From an uncultured Gemmatimonadaceae bacterium (lineage in GTDB: Bacteria > Gemmatimonadota > Gemmatimonadetes > Gemmatimonadales > Gemmatimonadaceae): a stretch of 64,000 bases of DNA. Under the pieces are notes generated by a model. That model was not told where the DNA came from, ran no database searches, and was given only the letters and a program-made list of their open reading frames with translations. Location of the stretch: the NCBI GenBank assembly GCA_963790305.1, contig CAWBOC010000013.1, positions 1 through 64,000 of the forward strand. Direction: 5' to 3'. The position numbers and the translations under genes are program-made. This document shows, piece by piece, positions 1 through 63,572 of the stretch; position 1 is the first letter of the stretch; the number at the start of each line of letters is the position of its first letter.

Positions 1-2126
1 AACGCGGCCCACCGTCTCACCGACCGGCTCACCGTGTCGGGAAACGTCTCGTACTCCGACACGCGTGGTGAGTTCATCGGGCGCGGCAACAACGTGAACG
101 GGCTGCAGCTCGGCCTGCTCCGCACGCCGCCCAACTTCAACAATTTCCCGTACCTCGATCCAGCGACCGGCCTCCATGGGTCATTCCGGTTGCAGAACCC
201 GTCCGCTCTCTCGGGCAGCGAATCCCGCGGGTTCGACAACCCGATCTTCATTCTGCACGAGCCGCTGAACGGCGCCAAAGTCGGACGCACCTTCGGCAAC
301 GTGAACGCGGAGTGGCTGCCGTCCACGTGGCTCAAGGTGAACTACACGTTAGGCGCCGACTAGCAACGACGAGCGGATCGAAGGCGCGCCGCAGGCGTCG
401 TCGGACGTGTCGGCGGGCGGTCGCATCACCGAGGGCACGATCACCAACTTCGAGCTCGACCACAATCTGGCGGGAACGGCGACGTGGACCCTCTCGCCCT
501 CCATCGGCGGGACGCTCACGCTCGGCCAGAACCTCAGCATCCCCAACAACCGGCAGCTGTCGGTGGTCGGTCGCACACTGGTTGCCCGAGGCCGTACAAG
601 TTGTCGAACACGTCAATGGGATCTCCCAATCAACATCGAGAACAACATCCACCGCGAGTCGTATTTGGGACAGCTGACCGTCGACCTGTTCGACCAGCTG
701 TACCTCACAATGGCGGCCCGCAATGACGGCTCTTCGACGTTTGGCGAGGAGGATCAGCGCAACTGGTTCCCCAAAGGAAGTCTCGCCTGGACGTTTACCA
801 ACTATCTCGGCGAGCAGCCCTGGGTGACGTTCGGCAAGCTGCGCGTGGCCTACGGCGAAGCAGGCACGGAACCGCAGCCGTACTTCACGTCCGACATTTT
901 CAACAGCGGCTCCATTCTGCTGACGCCGATCTCGCAGGGCACTGGATTGTCGCCGAGTCAGGGTGGGCGCGGCGGTCTGTACTCGTGGATCGTGAAGGCG
1001 GCGGATCGGTTGCTGCCCGAGCGCACGAAGGAGTTCGAGACCGGGTTCGACCTTGGGCTCTATCGCGACAAGGCAGATATCAGCTTCACGTTCTACAACG
1101 CCATCACGTCGGACGTGATTCTGTTGACGCCCCGGCCTCCTCGACAGGATATTTCACGCAGCCCCAGAACTCGGCCGAGTTCCGCAATCGCGGCTACGAG
1201 GTGGCGCTGAACCTCCGACCGGTCGCGACACCGAACTTCAGCTGGGATGTGGGACTGCAATGGGCGCGGAACCAGAGCCTGGTCACGCAGCTCGACGCCG
1301 CCACGTTCATTCCGATCGACGGCACCAATACGCTCACGCCTTACGAGGTGGCGAAGGAAGGGTCGCCCGTTGGCGTGTTCTACGACTTTGGATGGGTGCG
1401 GTGCGGCGTCAGCCCGAACGGGATGGACGCAGCGGTGAATGGGGATCTGGCTACGGTCTGCGGCGGCCAACCCGAGGGTGCGTTGTACATTGCGGCGAAC
1501 GGATTCCCGGTCGCCGATCCGAATCAGCGTGTGCTGGGCGACCCCAATCCCGACTGGACGGGGAGCGTTCGCAGCGGATTCCGCTACAAGAAGTGGGAGG
1601 TCTCGGGTCTCCTCGACATCCGTCAGGGTGGGGACATCTACAACGGGACCCGCGGCGCCCTCTACAGCTACGGGACCCACAAGGACACCGAGCAGCGCGC
1701 GAGCTGCTCCGGCGGCGTGTGCACGGGCAACGAGAAGACCTTTGGACGCAACGGCTGGTTCGACGGGGCAGTGGTGGGCCCAGGCGCCGGGACGGCAGTG
1801 CCGATCGGGGAAAACTGGTATCGCCAGGGGCTCGGGGCCGGTCCGTTCGCCGGCAACTCCGACGGCTTCATCGAGGACGGCAGCTACGTGAAGCTGCGTG
1901 AGCTGTCGCTCGGCTACACCCTCGACAATTCCTGGATCCGCAGCACGCTGGGCCTAACGAGCCTCGACCTGCGGGTCGCGGCCGGAACCTGAAGACCTGG
2001 ACGGACTACACCGGCTACGACCCGGAGACCAATCTGGGCGGCGCGATTCAGAACACGCGGGGCTACGACTACTTCAACATGCCGCAGACGCGCTCGTACG
2101 TGTTCACCGTCAACCTGAATCGCTGA
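1..2126 (+). CDS. SusC/RagA-family TonB-linked outer membrane protein (5'-truncated by window; several frameshifts)
   Basis: ORF pieces 34-363, 407-1210, 985-1992 and a tail ending ...NMPQTRSYVFTVNLNR-TGA(2126). SusC motifs RNDGSSTFG, KLRVAYG, PERTKEFETG, NRGYE, GDPNPDWTG, IEDGSYVKLREL, YTGYDPE. Indels near 361, 590-620, 1130 and 1985. Confidence 0.9.
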
Positions 2127-2145
2127 CCTCACGAGGATGACACCC

Positions 2146-3628: not shown

Positions 3629-4063
3629 GGCGTCACAATCGCGTTTGTCATCCTGCTCGCGGGTTGCCACCGCTACGAGCCGGTGACCGGCTCGACCGTG
3701 GCGCGCGGGTCGAGCGTGGCGGTGTCGCTGACGGACTTCGGCACCGCCAATCTCGGCCGGCTGTTAGGCATGGGTGTCGGGACGGTGGAGGGCAATCTCG
3801 TCTCCGTCTCCGACAGCGTGTACACGCTGGCCGTGCAGGTCGTGCGGCAGCGCAACGGCATCGAGACGTTCTGGCGGGGAGAGCAGGTGGCCATCCCGCG
3901 AACCGACGTCGCGGAAATTCGTCAGCGGCGGTTTTCTCGCAGCAAGAGCGCGCTGGCGACGGTGGCCATTCTCGCGGCGGCATTTGGCGCTGTCGAAGCA
4001 TTCATTGGAACCGGATCAGGCTCGCCGTCCCCCGGTGGCTCAGGAGGTGGCGGGCCGCGCTAG
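3560..4063 (+). CDS. Hypothetical lipoprotein
   Basis: Part of ORF 3464-4063; hydrophobic stretch ending LLAGC, C-terminal hydrophobic helix and Gly/Ser tail. Start uncertain (3533/3560/3596/3605). Confidence 0.7.
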   Translation: MRNAEINNGRLAMPLMRIPHSAIGVTIAFVILLAGCHRYEPVTGSTVARGSSVAVSLTDFGTANLGRLLGMGVGTVEGNLVSVSDSVYTLAVQVVRQRNGIETFWRGEQVAIPRTDVAEIRQRRFSRSKSALATVAILAAAFGAVEAFIGTGSGSPSPGGSGGGGPR

Positions 4064-4129
4064 GAACAGGCCGATCCCGGAGGGGTGCAACGCACGCGAT
4101 CCCCCTCCAACTGACCGTGCGGAGCGAAG

Positions 4130-4158
4130 TAAAACACCGCGACCAGGAGACGCGGTGC
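4130..4158 (-). terminator. Putative intrinsic terminator for the GDPD gene
   Basis: Minus strand reads gcaccgcg-tctcctggt-cgcggtgt-ttt. Confidence 0.45.
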
Positions 4159-4176
4159 CCTCCGGGTCGGCGACAA

Positions 4177-4238
4177 CGGAATGCGGAGTGCGGAATGCGG
4201 AGTAGTGCTGACAGTCCGCATTCCGCATTCCGCATTCG
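4177..4238. repeat. Family A hairpin element, copy A2
   Basis: cggaatg-cggagtg-cggaatg-cggagt...tc-cgcattc x3, between convergent genes. Confidence 0.9.
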
Positions 4239-5018
4239 TCATTGGGCTCGTCGCCGTTCTTCGAGGATCCCGCTCGGAGCGTTGGGGATGATTCCATTCA
4301 CGCCCTGTGCCCACAGTCGACGTGCTTCGCGTGGCTCGTCGACGGTCCAGACGTGCACCGGCGCCTGGATCTGGCGTGCGCCACGGACGATCAAGCCCAC
4401 CGGCACCGGCACTCCGTAGTACTCGTTGGGCGGACAGATGGCGCGATAAGGGACGCGCCCGGGCTTGAGTCCGGCAGCAGTGCGCGCCATGAGCTGCAAG
4501 ACGTCGCGCCGCGACGCGCCGCACGTGAAGGGCGGCTCGAGGAAGGCGTTCAGCGACCCGGCTTCGAAGGCGGCGACAATGCAGCGCGCTGCAGCCTTGA
4601 ACCGCTCGAGTACACGTCGGAGGGCCCACTGGGCGTGAATCGCCTTCACCTCGATGAGCATGGGCATGTCGGCGGGAATCGCCGCCAGGACTTCCTCGAC
4701 CGTCGGGACACGGATGCCTTGATCGCGGTACGGATACGTCTTGCCACCGTCGGGAGTAAAGCGTGCGCCCGCGTCGAGCTCTCGAAGCCGGCGCAACGAC
4801 ATGCTGGCGATCGCCCCTTCGCCCGACGTCGTTCGCATGACGGTGGGATCGTGCATAACGACCGGAACGTCCTCGGCCGTGACATGCACATCGAGCTCGA
4901 TGGCATCGACGCCCTGTTCGATCGCGCGGAGGAACGACGGGAGCGTGTTCTCCGGCGCTTCGGCCGAGGCGCCGCGATGCCCGATGACGGGATGCGCGGT
5001 GGTATCGAGAAGGATCAT
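4239..5018 (-). CDS. Glycerophosphodiester phosphodiesterase family protein
   Basis: IGHRGASAEAPENTL, IELDVH, VVMHD, IEVK and HVWTVD motifs. Confidence 0.92.
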   Translation of the reverse strand: MILLDTTAHPVIGHRGASAEAPENTLPSFLRAIEQGVDAIELDVHVTAEDVPVVMHDPTVMRTTSGEGAIASMSLRRLRELDAGARFTPDGGKTYPYRDQGIRVPTVEEVLAAIPADMPMLIEVKAIHAQWALRRVLERFKAAARCIVAAFEAGSLNAFLEPPFTCGASRRDVLQLMARTAAGLKPGRVPYRAICPPNEYYGVPVPVGLIVRGARQIQAPVHVWTVDEPREARRLWAQGVNGIIPNAPSGILEERRRAQ

Positions 5019-5162
5019 GGAGCGAGCAGGCTGGCCAGGTGCAGGGTGCGTTGGACCGAGGAGAAAGGCAGCGGGGCTGCAGACGTTCGCAGCCCCGCTC
5101 CTCATTCAAGGCAGACCGCGGGCCGTTGGGACCGTGGCCGCTCAAGTCCTCGATCAATCCCT

Positions 5163-7773
5163 CTAGAACGTCACCTGCAGCTGCGAGAGGATCATACGCC
5201 CGAGCTCTGGCGCTCCAATGAACTCGCGGTGCTTGTCGCCGAACAGGTTCTGCACGTTCACCGACAGGATCGTGTTCGAGGCGAAGGGCAAGCGATAGGC
5301 CGCGGACGCGTCCATCACGGTGTATGACTCAATCGTTCCGACGAAGACGCCAGAATTCATCGGGAACGTCTCGATCCAGCGGCCGCGCAGATCCACCGTG
5401 AAGCCGGTCGGCTGCTCGCGGTACGCGACGCCGAGTGCGGCCTTGTTCTTTGGCGCGTTCAAGGCGACGTCGGATACGCCTCCCACTTCGCTGCGCGGGA
5501 AGAAGTTCTTGTTGACGAACGAATATGATCCGTTGAGCGACACGCGATCGGTCATGAGGACATCGAACGCGAGGTCGGCGCCCCACCGGTCGAGATCTCC
5601 GAAGTTCCGGTAGGTGAGGATGAGCTCCGGCGCCTGCGTCAGCGGATTGTCCGGCGTCACGACACCGATGGGCGTGCTGGCGATGGCCGTGGCCGCGGTC
5701 GCCGCCTGCGCCGGTGCGATTCCATTCGCGATCAGGTACCCGGCTAGCGGCGTACCCGCGAAGTGCGCCGTAGGCGTTTCGACGATCAGCGGACCGACGA
5801 AGTCCGTCTTCTTCTCGAAATACACGTCGGCGGCGAAGCGGAGGCGTTCGGCGACGAGGCCGTTGTAGCCGACCTCGTACGTACTCGTGATGGTCGGCTT
5901 GAGACGGCCAATGTCACGCACGTCGGCGGGTTGAACCACAAAGGGCTGGTTCTGCGCGTTGCGCGCGAACAGGACCGTCGGCACCTGCGCGGCGGTGGGC
6001 CGCGGCACCGTCGAGATATTCACTCCGGCCTGTGCTGCGACTCCCTGCGCAACCGCCCAGAAGTTCGTGACGTCCGGAGGCAGGTACTGTAGGGGTCCAC
6101 CGAGTCCGGCAGGTGTGAAGGGCGACTTCATGCAGAGCGTGTTGCCGTTGACCGCGGTGCAGTTACGGCGGAACTGCAGCCCGCTTTGGGGCACGCCGAC
6201 CGTGCGTACGTTGTACGGCCCGAGCTGCTGCGCGATCAGGTCGAGGAAAAGATTGTTCGTGGTCGGCGTATTGAACGCGCGGTTGTACGTGAACCGTACG
6301 GTGTGTCCAGTGTCGGGCTTGAAGACGAGCGCGGCACGCGGCGAGAAAACCGGATCCTCGAGCTCGCTGTGATCGTCCCCGCGCAGGGCGAGGACGAGAT
6401 CGAACATGGGGCTCAGCCTGGTCTCCGACTGTATGTAGCCGCCCAACTCGGCAATGTCGTCGATCCCTTCGTTCCGGCCGTTGATGGTGCCATCGGTGCG
6501 CGGCTCCGTCTTCGAGTAATCGATGCCGTAGATGAACGACTGGCGATCTCCGAAATCGAGGCCGTGCTGGATCTGCCCAACCATGACGCGAGACTTGTCG
6601 ATGACACGCTGTCCCGTGCGCAACAGGTATGTGTCCGACGTGTTGCTCGTGTTCAGGAATGCCTGTGCGAAGAGCCGATTCCAGCGAAACCGCGCCTGGC
6701 CGAAGTCATAGCTCCAGTCCTTCGCCTGCGCGGTCCCAATGCCGGTCATCTCCGAGGGCGCTTCCCGCGAACGCGCGGCCCCCCGTGAACACCAGCTCCG
6801 ACGCTGGCGTGGGACGTACGTCGAAGCGAACCTCACCCGACCAGCGCTCGACGTCGAAGTCTCGTGGCAGCGTTTCGGCGGGATCGGTGTACTCCCAGTC
6901 CTCGGCCTTGAGGATCTGTCCGGAGATCTTGTAGCCGAAGCGCTCGCCCGAGGTGCCGGCGTGACGCACCGCTCCACGCAGGATGCTGCGGTTGCCGGCG
7001 CCGAGGCTGACCGTCGTGCCTTTGGACTCGAACGGTGACTTGCTGATGATATGCATGACGCCGTTGGCCGCGTTGGGTCCGTACAGCGCCGCGCCCGGGC
7101 CCAGGACCACTTCGATCTGACCGACGTCCTCGTTGGGGGTCGCGATCAGATACGGGGTGTTCACGCGAAGCGACGGCACGGTGGCGTAGCGATAGTCGCT
7201 GATCGTGAGCATCGCGCCGGAAAAGACATTGTTGAACCCGCGCACCACAACATTCCCGCCTTGCACACCAGTGCTCGCGTAGTCGACGCCCGGCACTGAC
7301 CTGATCTGATCGACGGGCGTGAGTGAGGGCCGCTCTTCAATGATCTGCGGCGTCACGACCTCGGTGTGAGAGGGCGCGTCCTGAGCTTTCTCGGGAGTGC
7401 GGGATCCGGTGACGACGGTCGGGTTCAGAACGATGGCGACGGCTGACACCGCCAAGTCGATCTCTACCGTTTGCCCCGGACCCACGACGACGTTGCGCCG
7501 TTCGGTCTCACCGTACGCGATGCGGCGCGCGGACACGGTGTATGTGCCCGGTGCGACGGAGAAACGGTACTGTCCCTCGTCGTTGGTCATCGCTCCGCCC
7601 GCAGGGGATCGCGCGGAAGTGAGCGCCTGCACAGTGGCGCCGACGACTGGCTGGCCGCCGTCGGCATCAGTCACGCGCCCGCTGATCGTGCCGTTTTGCG
7701 CCGCGGCGCTTCCAGCGACAAAAACCAGAGCGGCGACGGCGAACGCAAGCGTCCTGCGGAGAGACACGACCAT
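5163..7773 (-). CDS. TonB-dependent receptor with N-terminal carboxypeptidase-regulatory-like domain (frameshift near 6760)
   Basis: Signal peptide; GTISGRVTDA domain; plug motifs VVVRGFN and IEVVLGPGAALYGPNAANGV; barrel ending NVQNLF...QVTF. Split over ORFs 6706-8031 and 5163-6977. Confidence 0.88.
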
Positions 7774-8040
7774 CACGCACCTCGGCGTAGTGGATGAGAC
7801 GAATTGGGCGCCAGTGTGCTGGATGCGGCGGGCGATCCAGCGTCGGATCGAATACGCGTGCTCCGGAAGCGGGGGAGGACCCGGCTTTGGGATCGCGCGT
7901 GACGCAAGGGTAGACGGGTGAGGGACATCCAGCCATACGCGACATGACGTATGGCCGCGTCGAAAATGTCGTAGGGCGTGCATTCCGGCAAGTGTGTACC
8001 CGTGCTGGCCATGCCTGACGCCGCCGAGCATCTTCTCCCC

Positions 8041-9867
8041 ATGCCTGCCCCTCTATCGCGGTTCGCACGCCGTCCCTTCGCCGTTCCCCTCGCGCTCCTT
8101 GCCACGGCGTGCGCGCAGATGAACCCGGAGACGCGGCTCGATGTCAACCGACACGTGATTCGCGTCAACCAGGTCGGGTATCTTCCCGCGAGCCCCAAGG
8201 TCGCCGTGCTCTGTTCGCTCGATACGGTTCAGATTCGACAATTCACCGTCGAATCGAGCGAAGGAGTACGCGTTCTCGAGCCGCTGCCGGCCGTGGCAGC
8301 TCGACCATTTGGCCCGTGCGCCTCGACGCATCGGCTCGACTTCTCGAGCGTGCGTGCCGAGGGGGAGTACCGGCTCGTTGCGGCGGGAGTCCGCTCGCCC
8401 CTCGTTCGGATCTCGCGGACGGCGTACGCAGGTCTCGGAGACTCGCTGCTGTGGTACATGCGCCAGCAGCGCTCCGGATACAATCCGTTCTTTCGAGATT
8501 CCGTGCACAAGAAGGACGCGCTCCTCGTGGATCATCCAACGCGCGAGGGGGAATTCATCCCGGTGAGTGGTGGGTGGGCCGACGCGGCCGACTATCTCCA
8601 GTACGTCACGACCTCGGCCAACGCGACGTACGTGATGATGATGGCGTACCGCGAAACGCCCGATGTGTGGGGGGATGGACATCTCGCGGACGGCCTTCCC
8701 GGACGGAACGGCGTTCCCGACGTGCTCGATGAAGCGAGGCACGGTCTCGAGTGGCTGCTGCGAATGTTCCCCGAGGATTCGCTGATGCTCAACCAGCTGG
8801 GCGATGATCGCGATCACGCCTTTCTGGACCTGCCGACGACCGACTCCTCCGACTACGGCTGGGGAAAGGGCGGACCCCGGCCCGTGTACCCCTGCACCGG
8901 GAAGCCTCAGGGCCTCTTCGCGAACAAGAATCGTTCGACCGGATTTGCCTCGACGGCAGGGAAATACGCCTCGGCGTTCGCGCTCGGTGCGCAGCTCTTC
9001 GCCGATCGCGAGCCCGGTTTCGCGCGCCGCCTTCGTGACCGGGCAACGGTCGCGTACGAGATCGGTCGTGCGCGGCCCGGCGTCTGTCAGACTGCACCGG
9101 GACGGGCGCCCTATTTCTACGAGGAGGACAACTGGGCCGACGACATGGAGCTCGGTGCGACCCAGCTCTTCCAGCTCACGAGATCACCGCGGTATCTCGT
9201 GGAGGCGGCCGAGTATGCGCGCCTCGAGCCGGTGACGCCGTGGATGGGCGCGGACACGGCCAATCACTACCAGTGGTATCCCTGGCACAACAACGGGCAC
9301 TACGAGCTGTGGCGCGGAGGAGGAGCAGCGGAGCGAAGCACCGCGGTCGGATACTACCGTGAGGGTCTCGAGCGCATCGCGCGCCGCGCGGACAACGGAT
9401 TCCGGATTGGCATTCCGTTCATCTGGTGCTCCGCGAATCTGATGGTCTCGCTCGCGACACAGGCGCGGCTTTATCGGGAAATGAGCGGCGACACGCGGTT
9501 CGTCGACATGGAAATGGCGGCGCTCGACTGGATATTCGGGGCCAATCCGTGGGGAATGTCGATGGTCATCGGCATCCCCAAGGATGGAGTGTTTCCGCGA
9601 GATCCTCACTCGGTGGTGGCCAAGAACCTTGGTGTCGTGCTCACCGGCGGGCTGATCGACGGTCCGGTGTACCGATCGATCTTCCAGAATCTGCGCGGCA
9701 TCCACCTGTTTCAGCCCGACGAGTTCGCAGCCTTCAACGCCGGCCACATCGTCTATCACGATGACATGGGCGATTACTCCACCAACGAGCCGATCATGGA
9801 TGGCACCGCCAACCTGACGTACCTGGTGGGTGCGCTTGCACGTGATGGCATGCGGCTGGCGCCCTGA
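8041..9867 (+). CDS. Glycoside hydrolase family 9 with N-terminal Ig-like domain, probable lipoprotein
   Basis: IRVNQVGYLP, SGGWADAADY, DEARHGLEWL, FGANPWG and YHDD...YSTNEP motifs; LLATAC lipobox. Confidence 0.88.
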   Translation: MPAPLSRFARRPFAVPLALLATACAQMNPETRLDVNRHVIRVNQVGYLPASPKVAVLCSLDTVQIRQFTVESSEGVRVLEPLPAVAARPFGPCASTHRLDFSSVRAEGEYRLVAAGVRSPLVRISRTAYAGLGDSLLWYMRQQRSGYNPFFRDSVHKKDALLVDHPTREGEFIPVSGGWADAADYLQYVTTSANATYVMMMAYRETPDVWGDGHLADGLPGRNGVPDVLDEARHGLEWLLRMFPEDSLMLNQLGDDRDHAFLDLPTTDSSDYGWGKGGPRPVYPCTGKPQGLFANKNRSTGFASTAGKYASAFALGAQLFADREPGFARRLRDRATVAYEIGRARPGVCQTAPGRAPYFYEEDNWADDMELGATQLFQLTRSPRYLVEAAEYARLEPVTPWMGADTANHYQWYPWHNNGHYELWRGGGAAERSTAVGYYREGLERIARRADNGFRIGIPFIWCSANLMVSLATQARLYREMSGDTRFVDMEMAALDWIFGANPWGMSMVIGIPKDGVFPRDPHSVVAKNLGVVLTGGLIDGPVYRSIFQNLRGIHLFQPDEFAAFNAGHIVYHDDMGDYSTNEPIMDGTANLTYLVGALARDGMRLAP

Positions 9868-9873
9868 CACGCC

Positions 9874-10266
9874 GTGCGACAAAACATCTCGAGCGGCACA
9901 CCCTGGGAACCGATCGTCGGATACTCGCGCGCGGTGCGTGTGGGAAATACGGTCCACATTTCCGGGACGACCGCCACCGACGCGTCCGGGCGTGTCGTCG
10001 GGGCGGGGGACGCCTACGCGCAGACCCGGCAAGCGCTGAGAAACATCGAGTCCGCGCTGGCCCGCGCCGGTGCGCGGCTTGCGCACGTCGTGCGGACGCG
10101 CATCTACGTCACCGACATCGGTCGCTGGCAGGAGGTCGGTCGCGCACATGGAGAGACGTTTGGCGCGGTCCGTCCGGCGACGACCATGGTCGAGGTCCGG
10201 CGATTGATCGATCCCGACATGCTGGTGGAAATCGAGGCCGACGCCGTCATCGACGACGATGTGTGA
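9874..10266 (+). CDS. RidA/YjgF family protein
   Basis: [25 protein letters not shown] and LVEIEADA motifs. Confidence 0.92.
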
Positions 10267-10434
10267 CGTACGCTCGAAACACCGCTTCTCCGCTCACGCG
10301 TGATGATGATCCACGTCACTGAGCGAAGCGGCCCCGAAAATGCACTTTCGCGTGGCACGTGGCGCACTCTTCGTGCGACCGCGCCAATCGCGAAACACGT
10401 GGTGCCACGATGAACGTCGCAAGGGGAAAGACAA

Positions 10435-10704
10435 ATGAAGCTGAAGCGAGATCTGCATCTCGAGATCAGTCGCAAGCTGCAAAACAGCGTCAGCGTGAAG
10501 GTGTTTGCCTTCCGCGCTGACCGCGATGCAGAGCGCGTGTGTCTGGGCTCGTTACACATGCCCGAGGCGTACATGCGAGTATTTCGCAACATTCTCGAGT
10601 ACGGCTCGCTCGTACTCGGTGGCCGCGTGACCGTGGGCGGCTCCTATTTCTCGTCGGGACCCATCGTTCCCGACGACGCGATGCTGGGCAACCCGGCGCC
10701 CTAA
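10435..10704 (+). CDS. Hypothetical protein (89 aa)
   Basis: Purine-rich RBS (aaggggaaag) before ATG and normal codon usage; no recognisable family. Confidence 0.6.
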   Translation: MKLKRDLHLEISRKLQNSVSVKVFAFRADRDAERVCLGSLHMPEAYMRVFRNILEYGSLVLGGRVTVGGSYFSSGPIVPDDAMLGNPAP

Positions 10705-10714
10705 CGAGCGCCGC

Positions 10715-10804
10715 AGGTCGTCGAGGTAATCGAGGTCGTCGACGTGATCGAGGTGAAATGCCGTCCCTCGATCACCTCGACGACCTCGATTTCCTCGACG
10801 ACCT
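10715..10804. repeat. Family B hairpin element (tandem 9-mer AGGTSRTCG arms), copy B1
   Basis: aggtcgtcg-aggtaatcg-aggtcgtcg-acgtgatcg-aggtg...cctcgatca-cctcgacga-cctcgattt-cctcgacga-cct. Confidence 0.9.
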
Positions 10805-10938
10805 TTGGTGACCCGCGGCACCGCGTCCATCGTAACGCGCGGTCACAGCGGTCTTTTCGAGCTAAGCGGTCAAATTGCCCGTTTCCGAGCGGTGACGGGG
10901 CCCTTTGGGGAGCGTCTTTTAAGTATCCAAGGAGCCCC

Positions 10939-12021
10939 ATGCAAGACCAGATCGTCGAGCGCTGGGAAACGCAAAACGAGGCCGGGCGACGGTTCTTCGG
11001 CAGGGGCGATTTCGCTCGTGCCGAACAAGCGTTTGCCGCGGCTATTCGTGAAGCGGAACAGCTCGGCGCCGCCGATTTGCGTCTCGCGACGAGCCTCGCG
11101 AATCTCGCGCAGCTCAAGCTCCGTCAGAAGAACTACGACGAGGCGGACCGCCTCTTTCGTCGCTCCTTGCAGATCCGGGAGACCGCGCTCGGTCCCGATC
11201 ACGCGAGCCTCGTTCAGACGATCAGCGGTCTCGCCGCGGTGTGCTACGCACGCGGCGACATTGACGCCGCCGAGCCGCTGTTTCAGCGCGCGCTCTCGAT
11301 CACCGAGCGCCGACTCGGTGCGCAGCATCCCGACATCGTCACGAGCCTGAACAGCCTCGCGCGCATTGCATTCAAGCGGAACGACTACGCTGCGGCGGGT
11401 CCGTTGCTCGAGCGACTGCTGGTGCTCAAGGAGTCGACGGTTGGCCCGGGTCATCCTGAGGCCGCACCGATCCTCGGGAGCCTCGTAAAGGTCCGTTGCG
11501 CCGAGGGTGCGCTCGACGAAGCAGAGCGCCTGGCGCGTCGCGTCGTCACCATACGCGAGACCGAACAGCCGCTCAGCGAGATGGCGCTCGCGTCATCCCT
11601 CGAGCTCCTCGCCGATGTGCTGTCGCGACTCGGCAAGCGCGACGAGGAGAAGACCTCGCGACAGCGCGCGACCACGTTGCGCGGACATCCCGCGGCGACC
11701 GCCGGCCTGATGCCGCTGAACCAGCGACACACGCCAGCGCGAAAGGTGCCGGAGCTGCCGGAGCTGCCAGAGGTGCCGGATGTCCCAGTGGTGCCCGAGG
11801 TCCGCGATGTGCCGCAGGATGTGTTCGACCCTCACCCGACTCCCTCCGGTCTTCGCCGCAAGGTCGAGCCACCGCCCCCTGCTGCTGCGCCGTTAGGCGA
11901 CCACGCGTTCTTTCTGCCGGATATTGGCCCGAACGACGTCATCACGCCGATTCCCGCGAGTGCACCGCGTGCGCCCATGCCGTCGCCGATCGTCGCAGAT
12001 GCCGCGCATTTCGATGGATGA
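10939..12021 (+). CDS. Tetratricopeptide-repeat protein (kinesin-light-chain-like TPRs) with Pro-rich tail
   Basis: aaggag RBS; repeated TPR units such as RSLQIRETALGPDH and RALSITERRLGAQHPD. Confidence 0.85.
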   Translation: MQDQIVERWETQNEAGRRFFGRGDFARAEQAFAAAIREAEQLGAADLRLATSLANLAQLKLRQKNYDEADRLFRRSLQIRETALGPDHASLVQTISGLAAVCYARGDIDAAEPLFQRALSITERRLGAQHPDIVTSLNSLARIAFKRNDYAAAGPLLERLLVLKESTVGPGHPEAAPILGSLVKVRCAEGALDEAERLARRVVTIRETEQPLSEMALASSLELLADVLSRLGKRDEEKTSRQRATTLRGHPAATAGLMPLNQRHTPARKVPELPELPEVPDVPVVPEVRDVPQDVFDPHPTPSGLRRKVEPPPPAAAPLGDHAFFLPDIGPNDVITPIPASAPRAPMPSPIVADAAHFDG

Positions 12022-52905: not shown

Positions 52906-52932
52906 GTATGCGAGGGCTATGCGGGCGCTGGC

Positions 52933-53015
52933 GTTACCTCAAAGTAACCACGCCTTCATGAATTCTTAATGTTCGCAATGTTCCTGTTGTAATCTTCGGC
53001 CCGTAGCATTACAAC
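52933..53015. promoter_or_regulatory. AT-rich regulatory region upstream of tonB
   Basis: GTTAC-N6-GTAAC (52933-52948), AATGTTC direct repeat (52968, 52977), GTTGTAAT-N14-ATTACAAC (52986-53015). Confidence 0.45.
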
Positions 53016-53067
53016 CGCACGGCAATTGCGTTGAGCCACGCTCACCCACAGACCGGGCCAGGTTGGC

Positions 53068-53775
53068 ATGTTCAACGAGCTGATCGAGTCGAAGCCCAAG
53101 AAGCAAAAGAGTACCGGCGGCACCGTCTTCAGCGTCGTCCTGCACGCGGTCCTTGGCGGCCTTCTGATTTACGCCACGGCGAATGCTGGGCAGCAGCTGA
53201 CGAAGGAAAAGACGGAAGAGGTGAAGTTCGTCGAAGTGCCCAAGGACGAACCGCCTCCGCCCGAGAAAGCGCCTCCGCCACCGGACATCGTCGCCGCTCC
53301 GCCTCCACCCAAGGGATTCCAGGTGCTCACCGCACCCATCGAGATCCCTGACAAGATCCCCGACGTCGACCTCACGAAGGCCGTGACCAACGAGGACGAC
53401 TTTACGGGCAAGGGTGTCGCTGGCGGTACGGGCAAGGGTGTCGAGGGCGGCACGGGTCCGGTCAATCCGGATCAGGCGTACTTCGAGTTCCAGGTCGAGA
53501 AGCCGGCGCTGGCGGTTCCTGGCAATCCCAGTCCGCGCTATCCCGACGTGCTTCGCGAGAGCAACGTCGAGGGCGAAGTACTCGCGCAGTTCGTCGTCGA
53601 CCAGGAAGGGCGCGCCGACATGAAGACCTTCAAAGTGCTCAAGTCGTCGCACGACCTCTTTACGGCGTCGGTGAGAGCAGTCCTTCCATTGATGAAGTTC
53701 TACGCCGCCGAAGTCGGTGGTCGAAAGGTGAAACAGCTCGTGCAGCTGCCGTTCGCGTTCAAGCTGAACAAGTAG
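53068..53775 (+). CDS. tonB: Energy transducer TonB
   Basis: N-terminal TM with SVVLH, Pro-rich linker, C-terminal PRYP...VEGEVLAQFVVD. Confidence 0.9.
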   Translation: MFNELIESKPKKQKSTGGTVFSVVLHAVLGGLLIYATANAGQQLTKEKTEEVKFVEVPKDEPPPPEKAPPPPDIVAAPPPPKGFQVLTAPIEIPDKIPDVDLTKAVTNEDDFTGKGVAGGTGKGVEGGTGPVNPDQAYFEFQVEKPALAVPGNPSPRYPDVLRESNVEGEVLAQFVVDQEGRADMKTFKVLKSSHDLFTASVRAVLPLMKFYAAEVGGRKVKQLVQLPFAFKLNK

Positions 53776-53803
53776 CTCCCCCCACCCTACTGGAGTTCTG
53801 CAT

Positions 53804-54547
53804 ATGAATGTCGATCTGATCGAGCTATATGGGCACATGGGCTGGTTCGCCAAGGGCATCGTGTTCGTGATGCTTGGCATGTCCATTTGGTCGCTCACCG
53901 TCATGATCCAGAAGTGGTGGGCCTTGCGGAAGGCGCAAGCCGAGACCCGCAAGTTCGCTCCTGAGTTCTCGCAGTTCCTCGAGGAGGACAACCTCACCGA
54001 GGCGATCAAGCTGGCCGAGAGCTACAAGAAGTCGCACGTCGCCCGTGTGCTCGGTGGCGCGTTAGGCGAGGTTCGGCCCCTCATCCAGGATGGCTCGGTC
54101 ACCGTGGCCGACATCAACTCGGCGGAGCGCGCGGTCGAGCGGAACATGATGATCATCCTCGCCGAGCTGAAGCGCGGGCTCGGTATTCTCGCCACGGTGG
54201 GCGCGACGGCGCCGTTCGTCGGCCTCCTCGGTACGACGATGGGTATCGTCAACTCCTTCCAGGGTATGGCGACCGCGGGGACGGCGGGTCTCGGCGCGAT
54301 CTCGGCCGGTATCGCCGAGGCGCTCATCACGACCGCGCTTGGACTCCTGGTCGCCATTCCCGCGGTGTGGGCGTACAACTACTTCACGACGAAGATCGAG
54401 AATCTCACGGTCGAGATGACGTACACCTCGAAGGAGATGATCGATTACCTGATCAAGGGCGTCGCCGGCGAGTTCGGCCGCTCCCGCTTCACGCGCGAGT
54501 TCAACACGTCGACGGCCACGGGCGGCAACCAGCCGATCACGGGCTGA
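53804..54547 (+). CDS. exbB: MotA/TolQ/ExbB proton channel protein
   Basis: LATVGATAPFVGLLGT and GIAEALITTALGLLVAIPA motifs. Confidence 0.93.
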   Translation: MNVDLIELYGHMGWFAKGIVFVMLGMSIWSLTVMIQKWWALRKAQAETRKFAPEFSQFLEEDNLTEAIKLAESYKKSHVARVLGGALGEVRPLIQDGSVTVADINSAERAVERNMMIILAELKRGLGILATVGATAPFVGLLGTTMGIVNSFQGMATAGTAGLGAISAGIAEALITTALGLLVAIPAVWAYNYFTTKIENLTVEMTYTSKEMIDYLIKGVAGEFGRSRFTREFNTSTATGGNQPITG

Positions 54548-54573
54548 CCTAACGACGAGCCAGGAGAGCCGTC

Positions 54574-55053
<480 letters not shown>

Positions 55054-55073
55054 CCCGCGTCGAGGAGCTTCCT

Positions 55074-55493
55074 ATGGGAATGGCAGTGGGGAACGAAGCG
55101 GGCGGCCTAACGAACGAGCCGAATGTCGTTCCAATGATCGACATTCTGCTGGTGCTGCTGATCATCTTCATGATCATCCAGCCGATGATGCGGAAGGCGA
55201 TCGACTTGCAGCTTCCGGATCCGACGCCTCAGGCGACCCCCTCGGTGGCGAATCCTGACCAGATCGTGCTCGAGATTGGTCCGAACATGGCGATGTTGAT
55301 CAACAAGGAGCCCGTGTCGAAGGACCGCCTCGGACCGCGGATGAAGGAGATTTACGATCCGCGTCCGTCGAAGGTGCTTTTCGTGAAGGCCGACGGCACC
55401 AACAAGTACCAGGACGTGATCTGGGCGATGGACGTCGCCCGCGGGGCGGGAGTGAAAGTGATCGGTGTGCCGCCCAAGGACGCGGGTACCTAG
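55074..55493 (+). CDS. exbD: ExbD/TolR family protein (second paralogue)
   Basis: NVVPMIDILLVLLIIFMI and VKADG motifs. Confidence 0.92.
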   Translation: MGMAVGNEAGGLTNEPNVVPMIDILLVLLIIFMIIQPMMRKAIDLQLPDPTPQATPSVANPDQIVLEIGPNMAMLINKEPVSKDRLGPRMKEIYDPRPSKVLFVKADGTNKYQDVIWAMDVARGAGVKVIGVPPKDAGT

Positions 55494-55525
55494 CTCCACC
55501 AGGCACCCAATTCCGGGTCGGCAGC

Positions 55526-55564
55526 GGCGGACGAACCTATTCGGCTCGTCCGCCGTATTATTTT
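55526..55564 (+). terminator. Putative Rho-independent terminator
   Basis: ggcggacga-loop-tcgtccgcc followed by gtattatttt. Confidence 0.6.
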
Positions 55565-55594
55565 CCGGGAGCGCAGCATCGAGTCGGAGTTGAG

Positions 55595-56440
55595 ATGACA
55601 GAGCATTACGACCACCTAAACGACAAGAGCAAAGGCAACGACGAGGCAGACCGCCCGCCGTACCGGCCGCCCGTCGGCATGCCGCTCCGAGGAGAAGGGC
55701 GGTGGGGCGCGCCCTTCTCGGTGGCTGTCCACGTGCTGCTGATTCTTCTGCTGGTCACTCCGTTTTTCGCGAGCACGCTGGTGCCTCAGCTCTTTCCTGG
55801 CGGAGGTGCCGGCCCAGCGGGTGGCGGCGGTGGGGGACGCGGAGGCGTAGGCGGATTCCGACCCGAGCCGATCACTCCCGAGCGCCTGCGCTACATGCGC
55901 ATCGCTCCCGAGCCGCCTCCCCCGGAGCCGGCGGCCGAGGAGACGACCGAGCCTCTCACCGTTCCGAAGGAAGAGACGCCGCCGCCGCAGCCCACGCCTT
56001 CCGCGGAGCAAGCGGCGGTCGAAGAAACCGCTCCTGCCGCGGCTCCGATTCCCGGCACCGGTGGCGGGACCGGAAATGACGGGACGAATGGCACCGGGCC
56101 CGGGACCGGTGGCGGCACTGGCTCGGGAGTCGGAACAGGCACCGGCTCTGCGAATGGCCCAGGTACCGGCGGCGGTGACGGCCGCGACTATCTGCCGACG
56201 CCCGATTTTCTGCCGCTGCCTCCTGAGCCACGTCCTGGCAAAGTGCGCGGGCGATCGATCGCCGTGATTTTCACCGTCAATGCACGTGGCGACATCGTCA
56301 GCCTCGACTTCGCCAGCACCGGTGATCGCGGCTACGACCGCAAATTCCGCGAGCGGCTGCGCGAAGCGAAATTCCGTCCTGCAGTTGGCCCCGACGGACA
56401 GCCGATGCCCGCGACCTTCCCAATAACGTTCCAGCTCTGA
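55595..56440 (+). CDS. TonB-like protein with Gly-rich linker
   Basis: SVAVH TM anchor, Pro and Gly/Thr-rich linker, C-terminal FTVNARG...KFRPA. Confidence 0.7.
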   Translation: MTEHYDHLNDKSKGNDEADRPPYRPPVGMPLRGEGRWGAPFSVAVHVLLILLLVTPFFASTLVPQLFPGGGAGPAGGGGGGRGGVGGFRPEPITPERLRYMRIAPEPPPPEPAAEETTEPLTVPKEETPPPQPTPSAEQAAVEETAPAAAPIPGTGGGTGNDGTNGTGPGTGGGTGSGVGTGTGSANGPGTGGGDGRDYLPTPDFLPLPPEPRPGKVRGRSIAVIFTVNARGDIVSLDFASTGDRGYDRKFRERLREAKFRPAVGPDGQPMPATFPITFQL

Positions 56441-56458
56441 CGCACGGCGAGCCGTTTT

Positions 56459-56482
56459 CTCCTCGGTCCTCGTTCCTCGTTC
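56459..56482. repeat. Short tandem heptamer (CCTCGKT)x3, possible half element
   Basis: cctcggt-cctcgtt-cctcgtt; no clear complementary arm. Confidence 0.4.
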
Positions 56483-56588
56483 GTCACTAGCCTTCCCATC
56501 CCGCCGACATTACCTTCTGTCGGCTTTGCCCGACCGCACGGCCTAACCCTCCGCGCCGCATTGTTTTGCCTACAGGATCGAGGAGCTC

Positions 56589-58101
56589 ATGACCAGCGTG
56601 GCCACCGACGACCGCGTGACCGAGTCGCAGTCAGGGTTCGTCAAGGCGATGAGCCTGACCGACGCGACGATGCTCGTCGCCGGGTCGATGATCGGCTCCG
56701 GCATTTTCATCGTCTCGGCCGACATCGCTCGCAGTGTCAACTCGCCGTTCTGGCTCATCATGGCGTGGGTGGTGACGGGCGTAATCACACTCCTCGGCGC
56801 GCTCGCCTACGGAGAGCTCGCGGCGATGTATCCCCGAGCCGGCGGGCAGTACGTGTTCCTGCGCGAGTCAATGGGTCCACTCATGGGATTTCTCTATGGG
56901 TGGACTCTTTTCATCGTCATCCAGACCGGTACCATTGCCGCTGTAGCCGTGGCGTTCGGACGGTTTCTCGGCGTGCTCTGGCCGGCGATCACACCTGATC
57001 GGTTCGGATGGTTCCCTCAAGGGGACATTCTGCGTCTCGTGGCTCGGGTGTCGTGACGCATCGACGCAAGCGATTCAGCTTGGCCTAACGCCGCAGCGGT
57101 TCATCGCGCTGCTCTCGGTGTGGGTGCTGACCTGGATCAACCTGCGCGGCGTGCGCGAGGGCAAGATCATACAGACGACCCTCACCCTCGTGAAAACCGG
57201 GGCGCTCGCGCTTCTCATCCTGCTCGGCCTCACGATTGGCCGGAACGCGTCGGCGATCGCGGCCAACTTTGGCGCCGGCCGCTTCATGGGCGACGTCGAC
57301 ATCACGGGCCTGTTCATCATCGCGTTCGGCACGGCGCTGGTCGGCTCGCTCTTCTCGAGCGATGCCTGGAACAACGTGACCTTCGCCGCCGCCGAGGTGA
57401 AGGACGCGAAGCGCAATTTGCCGAAGGCGCTCGCGATGGGAACGGGGCTCGTCACGCTGCTCTACATCATGGCGAACTTCGCGTACCTGAGCGTGCTCCC
57501 GCTGCAGGGCGATCCCAATGGTGCGGGCGTGCTCGAGCGCGGCATCCAGCACGCCACGCAGGACCGCGTAGGCACCGCCGCCGCCGAAGTGATCTTCGGA
57601 CCCGCCGGCGTCGTCATCATGGCGATCGCCATTCTGATCTCCACGTTCGGCTGCAACAACGGCTTGATCCTCGCCGGTGCGCGTGTGTATTGGGCCATGG
57701 CGCGCGACGGTGTGTTCTTCCGCCGTGCCGGGACGCTGAGCAAGCACCACGTGCCGTCTACCGCGCTCATCGTGCAGGCGATATGGACGACGCTCCTGTG
57801 CCTCACGGGCACGTATGGACAGCTGCTCAACTACGTTATCTTTGCCGCGCTCGTGTTCTACGTGCTGACGACCATCGGCTTGTTCGTTCTTCGGCGAACG
57901 AGACCGGACGCGGAGCGTCCGTATCGCGCGATCGGCTATCCGGTGCTGCCGGCGCTCTACATCGTGCTGGCCGCCTCCGTGGCGGTCATCCTGCTCATCG
58001 CCGAGCGAACGCGCACCGAGGCTGTCGGCGGCCTCGTTCTCGTGCTCATCGGTGTGCCCGTGTATTTCCTCTGGCGCAAGCTCGAGCGCGCGCCAGCGTA
58101 G
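56589..58101 (+). CDS. APC-family amino acid permease (frameshift near 57025)
   Basis: GSMIGSGIF, ELAAMYPRAGGQY, DAWNNVTFAAAEVK and RPYRAIGYP motifs. Confidence 0.9.
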
Positions 58102-58130
58102 TCTCGCCATTCCCCAGGAGATTTTCCCCG

Positions 58131-60668
<2,538 letters not shown>

Positions 60669-60672
<4 letters not shown>

Positions 60673-62194
60673 GCGTGCGCTCGCTCTTCTGGCGGAAACC
60701 GATCGCCGAGCTGGTTCCGGAGGGCGAGGGCGCAAACACGCTCAAGCGTGCGCTTGGCGCGGGCGATCTCGTCATGCTGGCGATCGGCGCCGTCATCGGC
60801 GCGGGCATCTTCTCGTCGATCGGTACCGCGGCGGCGGGCGAGGTGCTTCCGACCGGAGAGGTCGTGCGGTACGGGGCGGGGCCGGCACTCGTCGTCTCGT
60901 TCATTCTGCTCGGCGCGGTCTGCGCGCCTCGCCGGCCTCTGTTACGCCGAGCTGGCATCCATGATTCCGCAGGCGGGCAGCGCGTACGCCTATTCGTACG
61001 CGACGCTCGGCGAGCTGATCGCGTGGATCATCGGGTGGGACCTCATCCTCGAGTACGCAGTTGGCAACATTGCCGTCGCGATCGCGTGGAGCGGGTACTT
61101 CAGCTCGTTCATCAGCGCCTTCGGGATCAACTTTCCTGACTGGCTGACCCACGGGTATCGGACGGCGCTGCTGAGCTCGGATCCGGCCGTCCACGGCCTG
61201 CTCGAGACCGCACCGCGCATCTTCGGGATTCCCGTGCTGTTGAACGTGCCGGCGTTCATGATCGTGATGTTGATCACCTGGCTCCTCTATATCGGGGTCA
61301 AGGAGAGCGTCCGCGCGAACAACATCATGGTGGTCATCAAGCTCCTGGTGCTGGGGGTGTTCATCGTCGTCGGGGCGATGAACATCGACACGGCGAACTA
61401 CACGCCTTTCGCGCCGAACGGGTGGCGAGGGATTCACCAGGGCGCGGCGATCGTCTTCTTCGCCTACATCGGGTTCGACGCGATCTCGACGGCGGCCGAG
61501 GAGACGAAGAATCCGCAGCGCAACATGCCGATCGGGATTCTCGCCGGCCTGGCGATTTGCACCTTGATCTACGTCATCGTTGGCATCGTCGCGACGGGAC
61601 TCGTGCCGTATCAGGAGCTGAAAGCGGCCGATCCGTTGGCCCGTGCCCTCGAGGTGGCAGGGCTCCCGATCGCGAGCTGGTTCGTGGCGTTCGGCGCTGT
61701 CGTCTCGTTGACGGCGGTGCTGCTCGTGTTTCAGTACGGCCAGCCTCGCATTCTTCTTCGCCATGGCGCGCGACGGCCTGTTGCCGAGGTTCGCATCGAA
61801 GATCCATCCAAAATACCGGACGCCGCACATCACCACGGTGATCACCGGCCTCGTGGTTGCGATCGGGAGTCTCGTCCTCGACGAGAACGAGATCTACGAC
61901 CTGACGAACATCGGGACGCTCTTCGCCTTCGCGATCGTGTGCGTGGGCGTGCTCGTGTTGCGCATCAAGGAGCCGGAGCGGCCGCGTCCGTTCCGCGTGC
62001 CCGGTCTGTGGGTGGTGTCCATCGTCGGCGCCGCCGCGTGCGTGTTCGTCATGAAGGGCCTTCCCGTGCGCGCGTGGGAGCGGTTCGGCCTCTGGATGAC
62101 GGCTGGCATCATCCTGTATTTCGCCTACGGGTATCGTCACTCGCTGCTCCGGCGTCGCGGAGCCTCACCCTCTGCAGACCGCACCGATGGCTGA
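60669..62194 (+). CDS. APC-family (cationic amino acid transporter-like) permease (frameshifts near 60925 and 61755)
   Basis: GAVIGAGIF, YAELASMIPQAGSAY, FFAYIGFD, MARDGLLP and RPFRVP motifs. Confidence 0.9.
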
Positions 62195-63572
62195 GCCGAT
62201 CGCGCATTCCGGAACTGGAATGAAGCTGCACACCAAGATCCTGTTGGGTCTGGTGGTCGGTGCCGTCGTCGGCATCGCGGCGAATCAGACGTTAGGTGGG
62301 AATCACGACGTCGTCATGTTCGTGAACAAGTACATCGCGACGCCCGTAGGGCAGATCTTTCTGCGGCTGCTGTTCATGATCGTGATTCCGCTCGTCTTCG
62401 CGTCCATCTCGCTGGGCGTGGCCGGGCTTGGCGATTTGCGCCGTGTCGGGCGGGTCGGCGGGAAGGCGATCGGGTACTTCCTGGTGTCAACCGCCCTCGC
62501 GGCGACGCTGGGATTGATCGCGGTGTCGATCGTTCGACCGGGTGAGCAGATGGACCGCGCGACGGCCGAGCAGTTGCGGGCCGAGTTCTCCTCCGATGCA
62601 TCGTCGCGAGTGGAGGCCGCTGCGTCCTCGGACTTCGGCGTGAACACGATCATTAACATGATCCCGCGGAACCCGGTGCGCGCTGCGGTCGACCTCGACA
62701 TGCTCGCGATCATCACCTTTGGGCTCATTTTCGGCGCAGCGCTAACGCTGATCACCGCCGAGCGCGCCAAGCCAATGCTGTCCTGGCTGGAGGCGTTGCA
62801 AGACGTCGTCATCAAGATCGTCGAAATGGCGATGCGCTTCGCGCCGTATGGGGTGGCGGCCCTCATCTTCGGCGTGACCTCGCGGTTTGGCTTCCATCTG
62901 TTGAAGCCGCTTGGTGCCTACGTGCTCGTCGTGCTCGGTGCACTGCTCGTGCACGTGCTGGTAAACATCTCGCTGATTTTACGCCTGATCGTGGGCGTCA
63001 ATCCGATCCTGTTCTTCCGTCGGATACGCGCCGCTCTCGTCACCGCGTTCAGCACGAGCTCCAGCAACGCCACCCTGCCGACAGCGCTTCACGTCGCCGA
63101 GCAGAATCTCGGCATTCCTCCGTCCATCGCCGGGTTTGTGTTGCCGCTCGGCAGCACGATGTGCATGAACGGGACGGCGCTGTTCGAGGGAATCACCGTC
63201 ATCTTCCTGGCGCAGGTGTTTGGAATCAATCTGGACCTTGGCCAGATGATCGTCGTGATGATCATGGCGGTGCTCACCGCGGTTGGGGCGGCCGGAGTAC
63301 CCGGCGGCTCGATCCCGCTCCTGGTGACCATCCTCGTGATGTTCGGAATACCCGCCGAGGGGATCGCGATCATCCTGGGCGTGGATCGCATCCTGGACAT
63401 GTCGCGGACGACGGTGAACGTGTGCGGAGACCTCAGCGCGACGGCGTTCGTCGCAAAGACCGAAGGCGTGTGGAACGCGTCGATGATTCCGTCGAATGAG
63501 GAGATGGCCATCCCTCACGTGCTCGACGACAGCCCGGGGTGGCCGCGGCCGGCGGACGCGCCGAAGCGGTAG
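62187..63572 (+). CDS. Dicarboxylate/amino acid:cation symporter (DAACS, GltP-like)
   Basis: AFSTSSSNATLP, MNGTAL, GAAGVPGG and DRILDMSRTTVNVCGD motifs; start 62187 or 62220. Confidence 0.93.
   Translation: MAEPIAHSGTGMKLHTKILLGLVVGAVVGIAANQTLGGNHDVVMFVNKYIATPVGQIFLRLLFMIVIPLVFASISLGVAGLGDLRRVGRVGGKAIGYFLVSTALAATLGLIAVSIVRPGEQMDRATAEQLRAEFSSDASSRVEAAASSDFGVNTIINMIPRNPVRAAVDLDMLAIITFGLIFGAALTLITAERAKPMLSWLEALQDVVIKIVEMAMRFAPYGVAALIFGVTSRFGFHLLKPLGAYVLVVLGALLVHVLVNISLILRLIVGVNPILFFRRIRAALVTAFSTSSSNATLPTALHVAEQNLGIPPSIAGFVLPLGSTMCMNGTALFEGITVIFLAQVFGINLDLGQMIVVMIMAVLTAVGAAGVPGGSIPLLVTILVMFGIPAEGIAIILGVDRILDMSRTTVNVCGDLSATAFVAKTEGVWNASMIPSNEEMAIPHVLDDSPGWPRPADAPKR

Follow-up and report, generated by a model that had tools for sequence, protein, structure and literature searches.

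An eight-base word dispersed through some Gemmatimonadales genomes, with DNA uptake sequences as its closest apparent analogue

Why would a genome of 66% GC spell out the same short word again and again, in different genes and at the cost of its preferred codons? The question arises from a 64,000-nucleotide stretch of DNA from an uncultured Gemmatimonadaceae bacterium (GenBank assembly GCA_963790305.1, contig CAWBOC010000013.1), here called the window, which forms the start of contig C13 in a genome of 4,313,030 bp and 13 contigs that we term G000. An initial annotation had singled out an octamer, CGTTAGGC, as a candidate genome-wide signal. All 14 exact copies that it listed were found in place, six on the plus strand and eight on the minus strand. 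The 11 further sites said to keep only a GTTAGG core were also all present, with their coordinates given one base upstream of the hexamer. In 100 dinucleotide-preserving shuffles of the window the word occurred 0.84 times on average and four times at most, with none of the 100 reaching 14, and 25 of the 33 TTAG/CTAA words of the window fall inside GTTAGG. We conclude that the over-representation of CGTTAGGC is real, lineage-specific and actively maintained. As the best reading at present, we suggest that it may mark DNA as self in some lineages of the Gemmatimonadales, a role for which the closest analogue would be the class formed by the DNA uptake sequences (DUS) of Neisseriaceae and the uptake signal sequences (USS) of Pasteurellaceae.

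Across the genome CGTTAGGC is the top over-represented 8-mer, with 855 copies where an order-3 Markov model expects 44.3, giving a density of approximately one copy per 5 kb (0.2 per kb). Two control words named in the initial annotation are much rarer and not comparable, CGTAAGGC occurring 128 times and CGATAGGC 160 times. The shorter cores are also in excess, with 1547 copies of GTTAGG (300 expected), 1105 of GTTAGGC (96 expected) and 1229 of CGTTAGG (138 expected). An order-6 model predicts 878 copies of the full word, which shows that the signal is already contained in 6-7-mers and does not extend beyond eight bases. Outside these eight bases no flanking position around the G000 copies carries more than 0.10 bit. 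A longer repeat, or a dispersed repeat of the repetitive extragenic palindrome (REP) or miniature inverted-repeat transposable element (MITE) type, was rejected on the basis of these uninformative flanks. One-base variants are enriched as well, CGTTATGC by 7.2-fold and CGTTAGGT by 6.7-fold, and variants in the flanks of GTTAGG generally stand 3-7x above expectation genome-wide.

The copies were placed relative to genes with our own crude gene calls, which give 3559 genes over 83% of G000. By this measure 667 copies lie within genes, 51 run across a gene end and 137 are intergenic, and the density is equal in coding (0.185 per kb) and non-coding DNA (0.19 per kb). The 667 coding copies comprise 383 in sense, read as NCG-TTA-GGC (316) or NNC-GTT-AGG-C (67), and 284 in antisense, read as NGC-CTA-ACG (137) or NNG-CCT-AAC-G (147). 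Frame 0 is unusable on either strand because the codon would be TAG or TAA. Synonymous shuffling within genes (10 shuffles) left 14.0 sense and 28.9 antisense copies, about 43 in total, and shuffling of codon order (10 shuffles) left 9.8 and 21.6, so that, as had been argued from the window, protein coding does not explain the word. The view that it forces rare leucine codons also held. For annotation of the genome, the word accounts for 28% of the TTA codons (316 of 1129), TTA being the rarest Leu codon of G000, and for 7% of the CTA codons (137 of 1922). Leu-Gly is encoded with TTA in 427 of 2084 instances after NCG, compared with 147 of 7908 in other contexts. In each allowed frame the word fills 3-22% of the sites that are compatible with the amino acids, and it also supplies 64 stop codons (36 of 920 TAG and 28 of 501 TAA). 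Its density rises with third-position GC content (GC3): genes of the lowest octile have 0.113 copies per kb and those of the highest 0.21-0.22, which is opposite to the fall expected if an AT-containing word arose by chance. Atypical genes carry it at lower density.

These results leave a negligible chance that there is no real signal and that the word is a by-product of coding or composition, a dispersed repeat or an assembly artefact. The agreement of the order-6 model with the observed count could be cited in support, but means only that 7-mers hold the signal. Against it stand a 15- to 19-fold enrichment under the order-3 Markov, synonymous-shuffle and codon-order nulls, the use of four reading frames as well as of stop codons and spacers, and flanks that show no conservation. 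A basecalling artefact, which the initial annotation had raised against itself, is ruled out by the same enrichment in dozens of independent assemblies of relatives and in the finished record of a cultured isolate.

The word shows no preference for either strand, with 419 copies on the plus and 436 on the minus strand of G000, as the initial annotation had held. Polarity along the replichores was also absent. Over 86 segments of 50 kb, word skew and GC skew were correlated with a rho of only 0.19 (p 0.08), the strand counts being 174 plus and 163 minus where GC skew is above zero and 234 plus and 263 minus where it is below. On contig C5, where the skew switches near 400 kb, the counts are 41/45 before and 52/52 after the switch. 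At short range the copies appear to avoid each other. Among the 842 gaps of G000, close pairs are deficient in all four orientations, with one gap below 100 bp (17 expected), four below 200 bp (34 expected), 34 below 500 bp (82 expected) and 108 below 1 kb (155 expected). In 400 kb of the much richer relative G298, 11 gaps fall below 100 bp against 21 expected. At large scale the gaps in G000 resemble those of a Poisson process (coefficient of variation 1.006). One segment, C6:288265-342699, runs for 54 kb without an exact copy, and has a GC content of 0.662, ordinary-looking genes and six GTTAGG hexamers. By a rough estimate under exponential spacing, a gap of this length would arise by chance in roughly 1 in 70 genomes.

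Conservation was assessed against G003, a member of the same genus, of which 191 kb could be aligned to G000 at 78% DNA identity. In the aligned DNA 19 word sites are common to both genomes in place, 14 occur only in G000 and 16 only in G003. Of the G000 sites 58% (19/33) are therefore identical in G003, compared with 19-20% for 8-mers in general. The flanks of the common sites have an identity of 0.81, against 0.785 at random positions, and this merely average value places the constraint on the word itself. Where a site has been lost or gained, the other genome mostly shows the preferred GC-rich codons, for example CGCTCGGC.

We surveyed 401 genomes of the phylum and called a genome rich if it held at least 300 copies and at least twice as many as of the reversed control word. 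By this definition 13 of 95 genomes in family f1 and 3 of 166 in family f2 are rich, and none of the 135 surveyed outside the order. G015, G079, G198 and G118 were counted solely in the tallies of poor genomes. All eight congeners of G000 are enriched, with 382-1006 copies and 1.7-4.3x the reversed control word, G002 and G007 lying below 2x. In other genera single genomes are enriched, up to 6360 copies in the 5.1 Mb of G016, the richest, and the highest density among the relatives approaches one copy per 0.8 kb. Density per Mb varies about 8-fold among rich genomes. The differences between sisters can be abrupt: in genus g38 three genomes have 3479-4141 copies and the fourth only 66. A ComEC tree of 40 genomes requires nine changes in richness, at least five of them forced by well-supported branches, and a tree of a more conserved methylmalonyl-CoA-mutase-like marker (31 genomes) requires seven, at least three of them forced. 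Both are single-gene trees from a quick search. Richness is patchy within one order and has undergone at least three to five independent changes.

A search of 400 kb of the word-poor genome G089 for an alternative word brought up none as strong, the best z being about 10, against 33-75 in rich genomes. The variant CGTTATGC is co-enriched in genera g1, g5, g9 and g18, most clearly in G030 (315 copies, control 30), and this co-enrichment is absent in g38 and g41. In G000, 237 of the 253 copies of CGTTATGC are dispersed. Public sequencing runs yielded small shares in soil-metagenome contigs, four runs giving fragmentary cover. Literature searches found no published description of the word in this lineage, in agreement with the initial annotation, which had known of none. 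For competence in Gemmatimonas, the 12 papers listed out of 21,048 hits included nothing relevant.

Taken together, these properties would fit a molecular drive of the DUS/USS type. This is our best reading and one that we hold weakly, at a probability of roughly 0.35. Some factor would recognise a compact 8-base word with a strict GTTAGG core and a preferred C on both flanks, independently of strand, reading frame and gene. The type IV pilus-ComEA-ComEC machinery might then import DNA that carries the word preferentially, and alleles that gain the word could spread by recombination and subsequently be kept, through drive rather than through selection on a function in cis. The resemblance is extensive. 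Like DUS and USS, CGTTAGGC is a short non-palindromic word, present in hundreds to thousands of copies on both strands equally, inside genes in several frames against codon bias, at sites conserved between species, and with lineage-specific variants ('dialects'), in organisms that have transformation genes. It differs in belonging to another phylum, in being a different word, in its lower density in G000 and in its identity with an integron recombination core, discussed below. The uptake-like reading that the initial annotation had favoured still gives the best fit, as a resemblance and not as a demonstrated mechanism.

G000 carries a comFB-comEC pair, its ComEC having both the Competence and the Lactamase_B domain, together with a PilQ-like secretin, two major-pilin-like genes and a minor-pilin operon that encodes two GspH/FimT-like proteins and one PilX-like protein. 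The genus also has an HHH_3 protein resembling ComEA, of which the G000 copy is cut by a contig end. The PilQ-like gene is found twice with the same frame length, at C3:186339-187694 and C11:41993-43348, and the C11 contig may duplicate part of C3. Nearby, at C3:176000-178600, genes resembling xerC and trmFO/gidA are broken up between frames, pointing to assembly errors of the indel type.

Several observations weigh against a drive by uptake. Word-poor genomes carry the competence genes equally: among 48 genomes ComEC is present in 47, an HHH_3/ComEA-like protein in all 48 and a PilQ-like secretin in 47, so these genes make transformation plausible and leave the difference between rich and poor unexplained. 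They were rejected as discriminators on the same counts. Richness thus switches among close genera that all keep their competence genes, unlike in the DUS and USS systems. We found no uptake receptor, a part that the minor pilin ComP plays in Neisseria, and protein searches with the minor pilins gave weak matches in both classes, these proteins being too divergent to compare. Inverted DUS-like pairs that could act as terminators are absent from G000. In raw counts for family f1, AddAB-type nucleases occur in none of 15 rich genomes and in 11 of 19 poor ones, which a transformation model does not predict. The arrival at the same 8-mer at least three to five times would need a reader that the lineages already had in common, or else the transfer of an unknown gene, and uptake bias alone does not account for repeated origin of the same word. 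Finally, drive offers no account of why the word matches the R' end of integron attC sites letter for letter. The gene content of 41 comEC loci revealed no family specific to rich genomes; one small family that had looked rich-biased is ComFB, which tblastn also finds in poor genomes.

CGTTAGGC could instead be a recombination or repair signal acting in cis, similar to Chi, that is read by an end-processing or recombination machine other than RecBCD or AddAB, is kept by selection at regular intervals in either orientation and marks resident DNA as self. We regard this as unlikely, though deserving of serious consideration. Chi and the segregation motifs KOPS (FtsK orienting polar sequences) and AIMS (architecture imparting sequences) are likewise over-represented octamers, found approximately once per 5 kb and depleted in atypical DNA. 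The density of the word in G000 is Chi-like, the Chi of Escherichia coli occurring about once per 4.5 kb, and the short-range repulsion, the conservation of sites and the lower density in atypical genes are all in keeping with such a role. Transfer of the machine would also explain the same word in polyphyletic lineages. In contrast to these motifs, CGTTAGGC has no co-orientation with replication, and to our knowledge every characterised Chi has such a polarity. The 6360 copies in the 5.1 Mb of G016 also seem denser than a Chi-like function would need.

No candidate machine was found in G000. RecC was not detected there, and is present in four of 48 genomes, including the rich G160 and G317. 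G000 has no AddAB nuclease of the PF12705 PD-(D/E)XK type and no match to AddA or AddB other than three UvrD-like helicases, and NurA was found in none of five genomes, G000 among them. The lack of both RecBCD and AddAB in G000 argues against a Chi explanation through those machines. In raw counts, richness is inversely associated with the classical machines, since 1 of 20 rich genomes has a PF12705 AddAB-type open reading frame, compared with 15 of 28 poor ones. Queries with two AddB proteins gave no match in the 15 rich genomes of family f1. The association has exceptions, since the rich G030 and G213 carry AddB in addition to the two rich genomes with RecC, and an independent-pairs test was not significant, with only three pairs on supported branches. 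The deficit of AddAB in rich genomes is a lead only, not significant under phylogenetic control. A replacement gene was sought at the AddAB locus, but gene order there is not shared with the rich sister genomes. Small GIY-YIG nucleases of the Ssn type were also considered and rejected, being mostly in poor genomes; the Ssn repeats, according to PMC11893778, are extragenic hairpins, unlike the word.

A second possibility is that the word is written by modification, with biased mismatch repair of the Dcm-Vsr kind turning near-cognate sequences into CGTTAGGC. The precedent would be HIP1 (GCGATCGC) of cyanobacteria, a highly iterated octamer in coding DNA whose distribution is patchy among lineages. 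The word recalls HIP1 in its abundance in coding DNA and its lineage-specific distribution, and the enrichment of one-off variants at some positions, as with CGTTATGC and CGTTAGGT above, would also be in line with such conversion. HIP1 is palindromic and linked to a methyltransferase, whereas CGTTAGGC is asymmetric. Repair of T:G to C:G would, moreover, not be expected to generate a TTA core. Vsr is absent from all five genomes searched, including G000, and C5-methyltransferases (PF00145) from all three rich genomes examined (G000, G235 and G298). In this very small sample PF00145 was present in both poor genomes (G287 and G132). Sequencing in single-molecule real-time (SMRT) mode detects 5-methylcytosine (m5C) poorly, and m5C placed by another enzyme family is conceivable. 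The cultured strain Gemmatirosa kalamazoonensis KBS708, which we did not count as independent of the surveyed genomes, has 36 copies of the word in a 50-kb stretch of its plasmid 1, against 0.77 expected. Its SMRT methylome lists only RGATCY, ATGCAC and CCAGN7TCA (PMC3974934), three N6-methyladenine motifs that are unrelated to the word, despite the word-rich plasmid. These results disfavour the DNA-modifying protein that the initial annotation had offered as one option, and we consider an origin through modification very improbable.

The strand symmetry, the short-range repulsion, the equal density in genes and spacers and the conservation of sites are also what might be seen if the word were the binding site of a chromosomal protein that is abundant and sequence-specific and has a nucleoid-associated or chromosome-organising role, with sites selected for their spacing. 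An asymmetric 8-base site with a strict 6-base core would suit a monomeric DNA-binding domain. We found no candidate protein, and the Poisson-like spacing at large scale together with the 54-kb gap does not suggest selected spacing. The all-or-none differences between sisters, as in genus g38, would require an essential-looking architecture to be gained repeatedly, and the 8-fold range of density among rich genomes also speaks against it. The evidence tells neither for nor against the chromosome-organising protein named in the initial annotation, and we consider a chromosomal binding site rather unlikely.

The identity mentioned above emerged from word-poor relatives, where CGTTAGGC occurs in same-strand arrays with copies approximately 500-600 bp apart. 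These are the attC sites of integrons, in which R'' is GCCTAAC and R' is C-GTTAGGC, identical to the word in all eight letters. Such arrays are found in G021, G019, G020, G018, G009 and G011, and the rich genomes G298 and G235 also use the word in their attC sites. In G021 (L001, C95:1-20000) there are about 20 attC sites in 20 kb, very uniform and each of about 90 bases. G019 (L002, C3:1-9000) also has a long cassette array, whose attC sites are very uniform and again about 90 bases long. The initial annotation had described the word itself correctly and had overlooked this identity with the attC core (GTTRRRY), which in the relatives forms the R' end.

Could the dispersed words then be secondary sites, landing pads or decoys for the integrase IntI? 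G000 has an intact IntI (448.9 bits, in a 355-aa open frame), and integrases can insert cassettes at genomic sites, as reported in 10.1101/2022.09.11.507474; the same source states that GWT suffices for these genomic attG sites. Four lines of evidence speak against IntI as the reader of the word. Its presence does not track richness: it exceeds the family threshold in 22 of 31 relatives irrespective of class, was not found in the rich genomes G012, G005, G395 and G125, and is split by frameshifts into three pieces in G016, the richest of all. An IntI tree of 20 rows mixes rich and poor, with 478 of 500 shuffles giving a value as low, and a special IntI clade in rich genomes was rejected as the two classes intermingle. 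Although the letters, including the flanking C, match the R' box of attC and attI, the dispersed copies are solitary, lack the R'', L'' and L' arms that make attC an imperfect palindrome of 50-150 bases, lie inside ordinary genes and are independent of the presence of IntI. Only two GTTAGGC copies in G000 have an RYYTAAC partner 45-150 bases upstream, and attC-like pairing of the dispersed copies was rejected on these two cases and the single gap below 100 bp among 842. It is also difficult to see how recombination could place the word in frame within conserved genes. We consider this integron-related account improbable, with only a slim chance of being correct.

The integron of G000 itself is a sedentary chromosomal one, outside the window, extending from C9:694984 to about C9:720000 (L254 covers 690001-700000 of this contig). 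Its intact intI gene is at C9:694984-695919 and is followed by a same-strand cassette array from C9:696600. Folding identified at least 11 attC sites in the array, each 133-140 bases long, with R'' as GCAGAAC or GCATAAC and cores of CGTTCTGC in eight and CGTTATGC in three, and the dispersed word occurs inside the array at ordinary density. The array never uses GTTAGGC as its core, again at odds with the dispersed words being IntI sites, and CGTTCTGC is not enriched in the genome (277 copies, 258 expected). A 'core shift', in which rich genomes move the integron core off the word, holds in G000 and was rejected as a rule, G298 and G235 both using the word.

The identity with attC may still be connected to uptake in another way. 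The import machinery might be tuned to the attC R' end, the word serving as a self tag through which word-rich Gemmatimonadales would preferentially bring in both conspecific DNA and integron gene cassettes. A link between transformation and cassette capture has been shown in Vibrio (PMC12614218). We think this tuning rather unlikely to be correct. If it were, the attC end common to the order would explain why separate lineages converged on the same eight letters. Uptake sequences would then extend beyond the Pseudomonadota for the first time, and uptake specificity would be tied directly to integrons, also for the first time. The probability left over from the readings set out here we assign to mechanisms that we have not thought of.

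Returning to the window, its 14 copies illustrate how the word is accommodated in genes, with frames again based on our own crude gene calls. Four are read as NCG-TTA-GGC from plus-strand copies, as ACG-TTA-GGC (Thr-Leu-Gly) at 347..354, in a plus-strand gene, and at 46112..46119, as CCG-TTA-GGC (Pro-Leu-Gly) at 11891..11898 and as GCG-TTA-GGC (Ala-Leu-Gly) at 54060..54067. Four minus-strand copies are read on the gene strand as NGC-CTA-ACG, of which those at 1952..1959, 47836..47843 and 55105..55112 give GGC-CTA-ACG (Gly-Leu-Thr) and that at 13575..13582 gives CGC-CTA-ACG (Arg-Leu-Thr). Three use the CCT-AAC frame: the minus-strand copies at 17396..17403 (GCG-CCT-AAC-GGC, Ala-Pro-Asn-Gly) and 36242..36249 (ACG-CCT-AAC-GTG, Thr-Pro-Asn-Val), both on the gene strand, and the plus-strand copy at 24708..24715 (ATG-CCT-AAC-GCG, Met-Pro-Asn-Ala), which lies in a minus-strand gene. 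The plus-strand copy at 24428..24435 provides the TAG stop of a gene called at 21713-24433 and overlaps the end of a convergent gene. The remaining two, at 33165..33172 and 57083..57090, both on the minus strand, are intergenic. The 11 one-off variants, listed without strand, span 3763..62296 and vary in their flanks, with T or G at the 5' end or T or G at the 3' end; their GTTAGG hexamers start at 3763, 10700, 21433, 26915, 35834, 42301, 45561, 54548, 55049, 56542 and 62291.

The other over-represented words of G000 derive from intergenic tandem-heptamer hairpin elements and are not compact words. One of them, GAATGCGGA, has 520 copies in G000, of which 364 are intergenic. In the window, intergenic inverted repeats with tandem-heptamer arms lie at 17600-17725, 10715-10804, 12810-12900, 14868-14940 and 15559-15630. 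The arms consist, for example, of (GGAATGC)n facing (GCATTCC)n, and units of the TCGAGGT type also occur. Matches to these hairpin elements occur at dozens of sites in five congeners.

Very few groups of bacteria are known to have genome-wide self words, and whether these originate through drive, selection or repair bias is debated. CGTTAGGC adds a case in an abundant soil phylum, and its repeated switching among close relatives provides natural contrasts for finding the gene of the reader. The cultured strain KBS708, with its word-rich stretch of plasmid 1, makes experiments on uptake, binding and recoding possible. Its coincidence with the crossover site of integrons suggests, in addition, a connection between natural transformation and the capture of cassettes that is open to testing.

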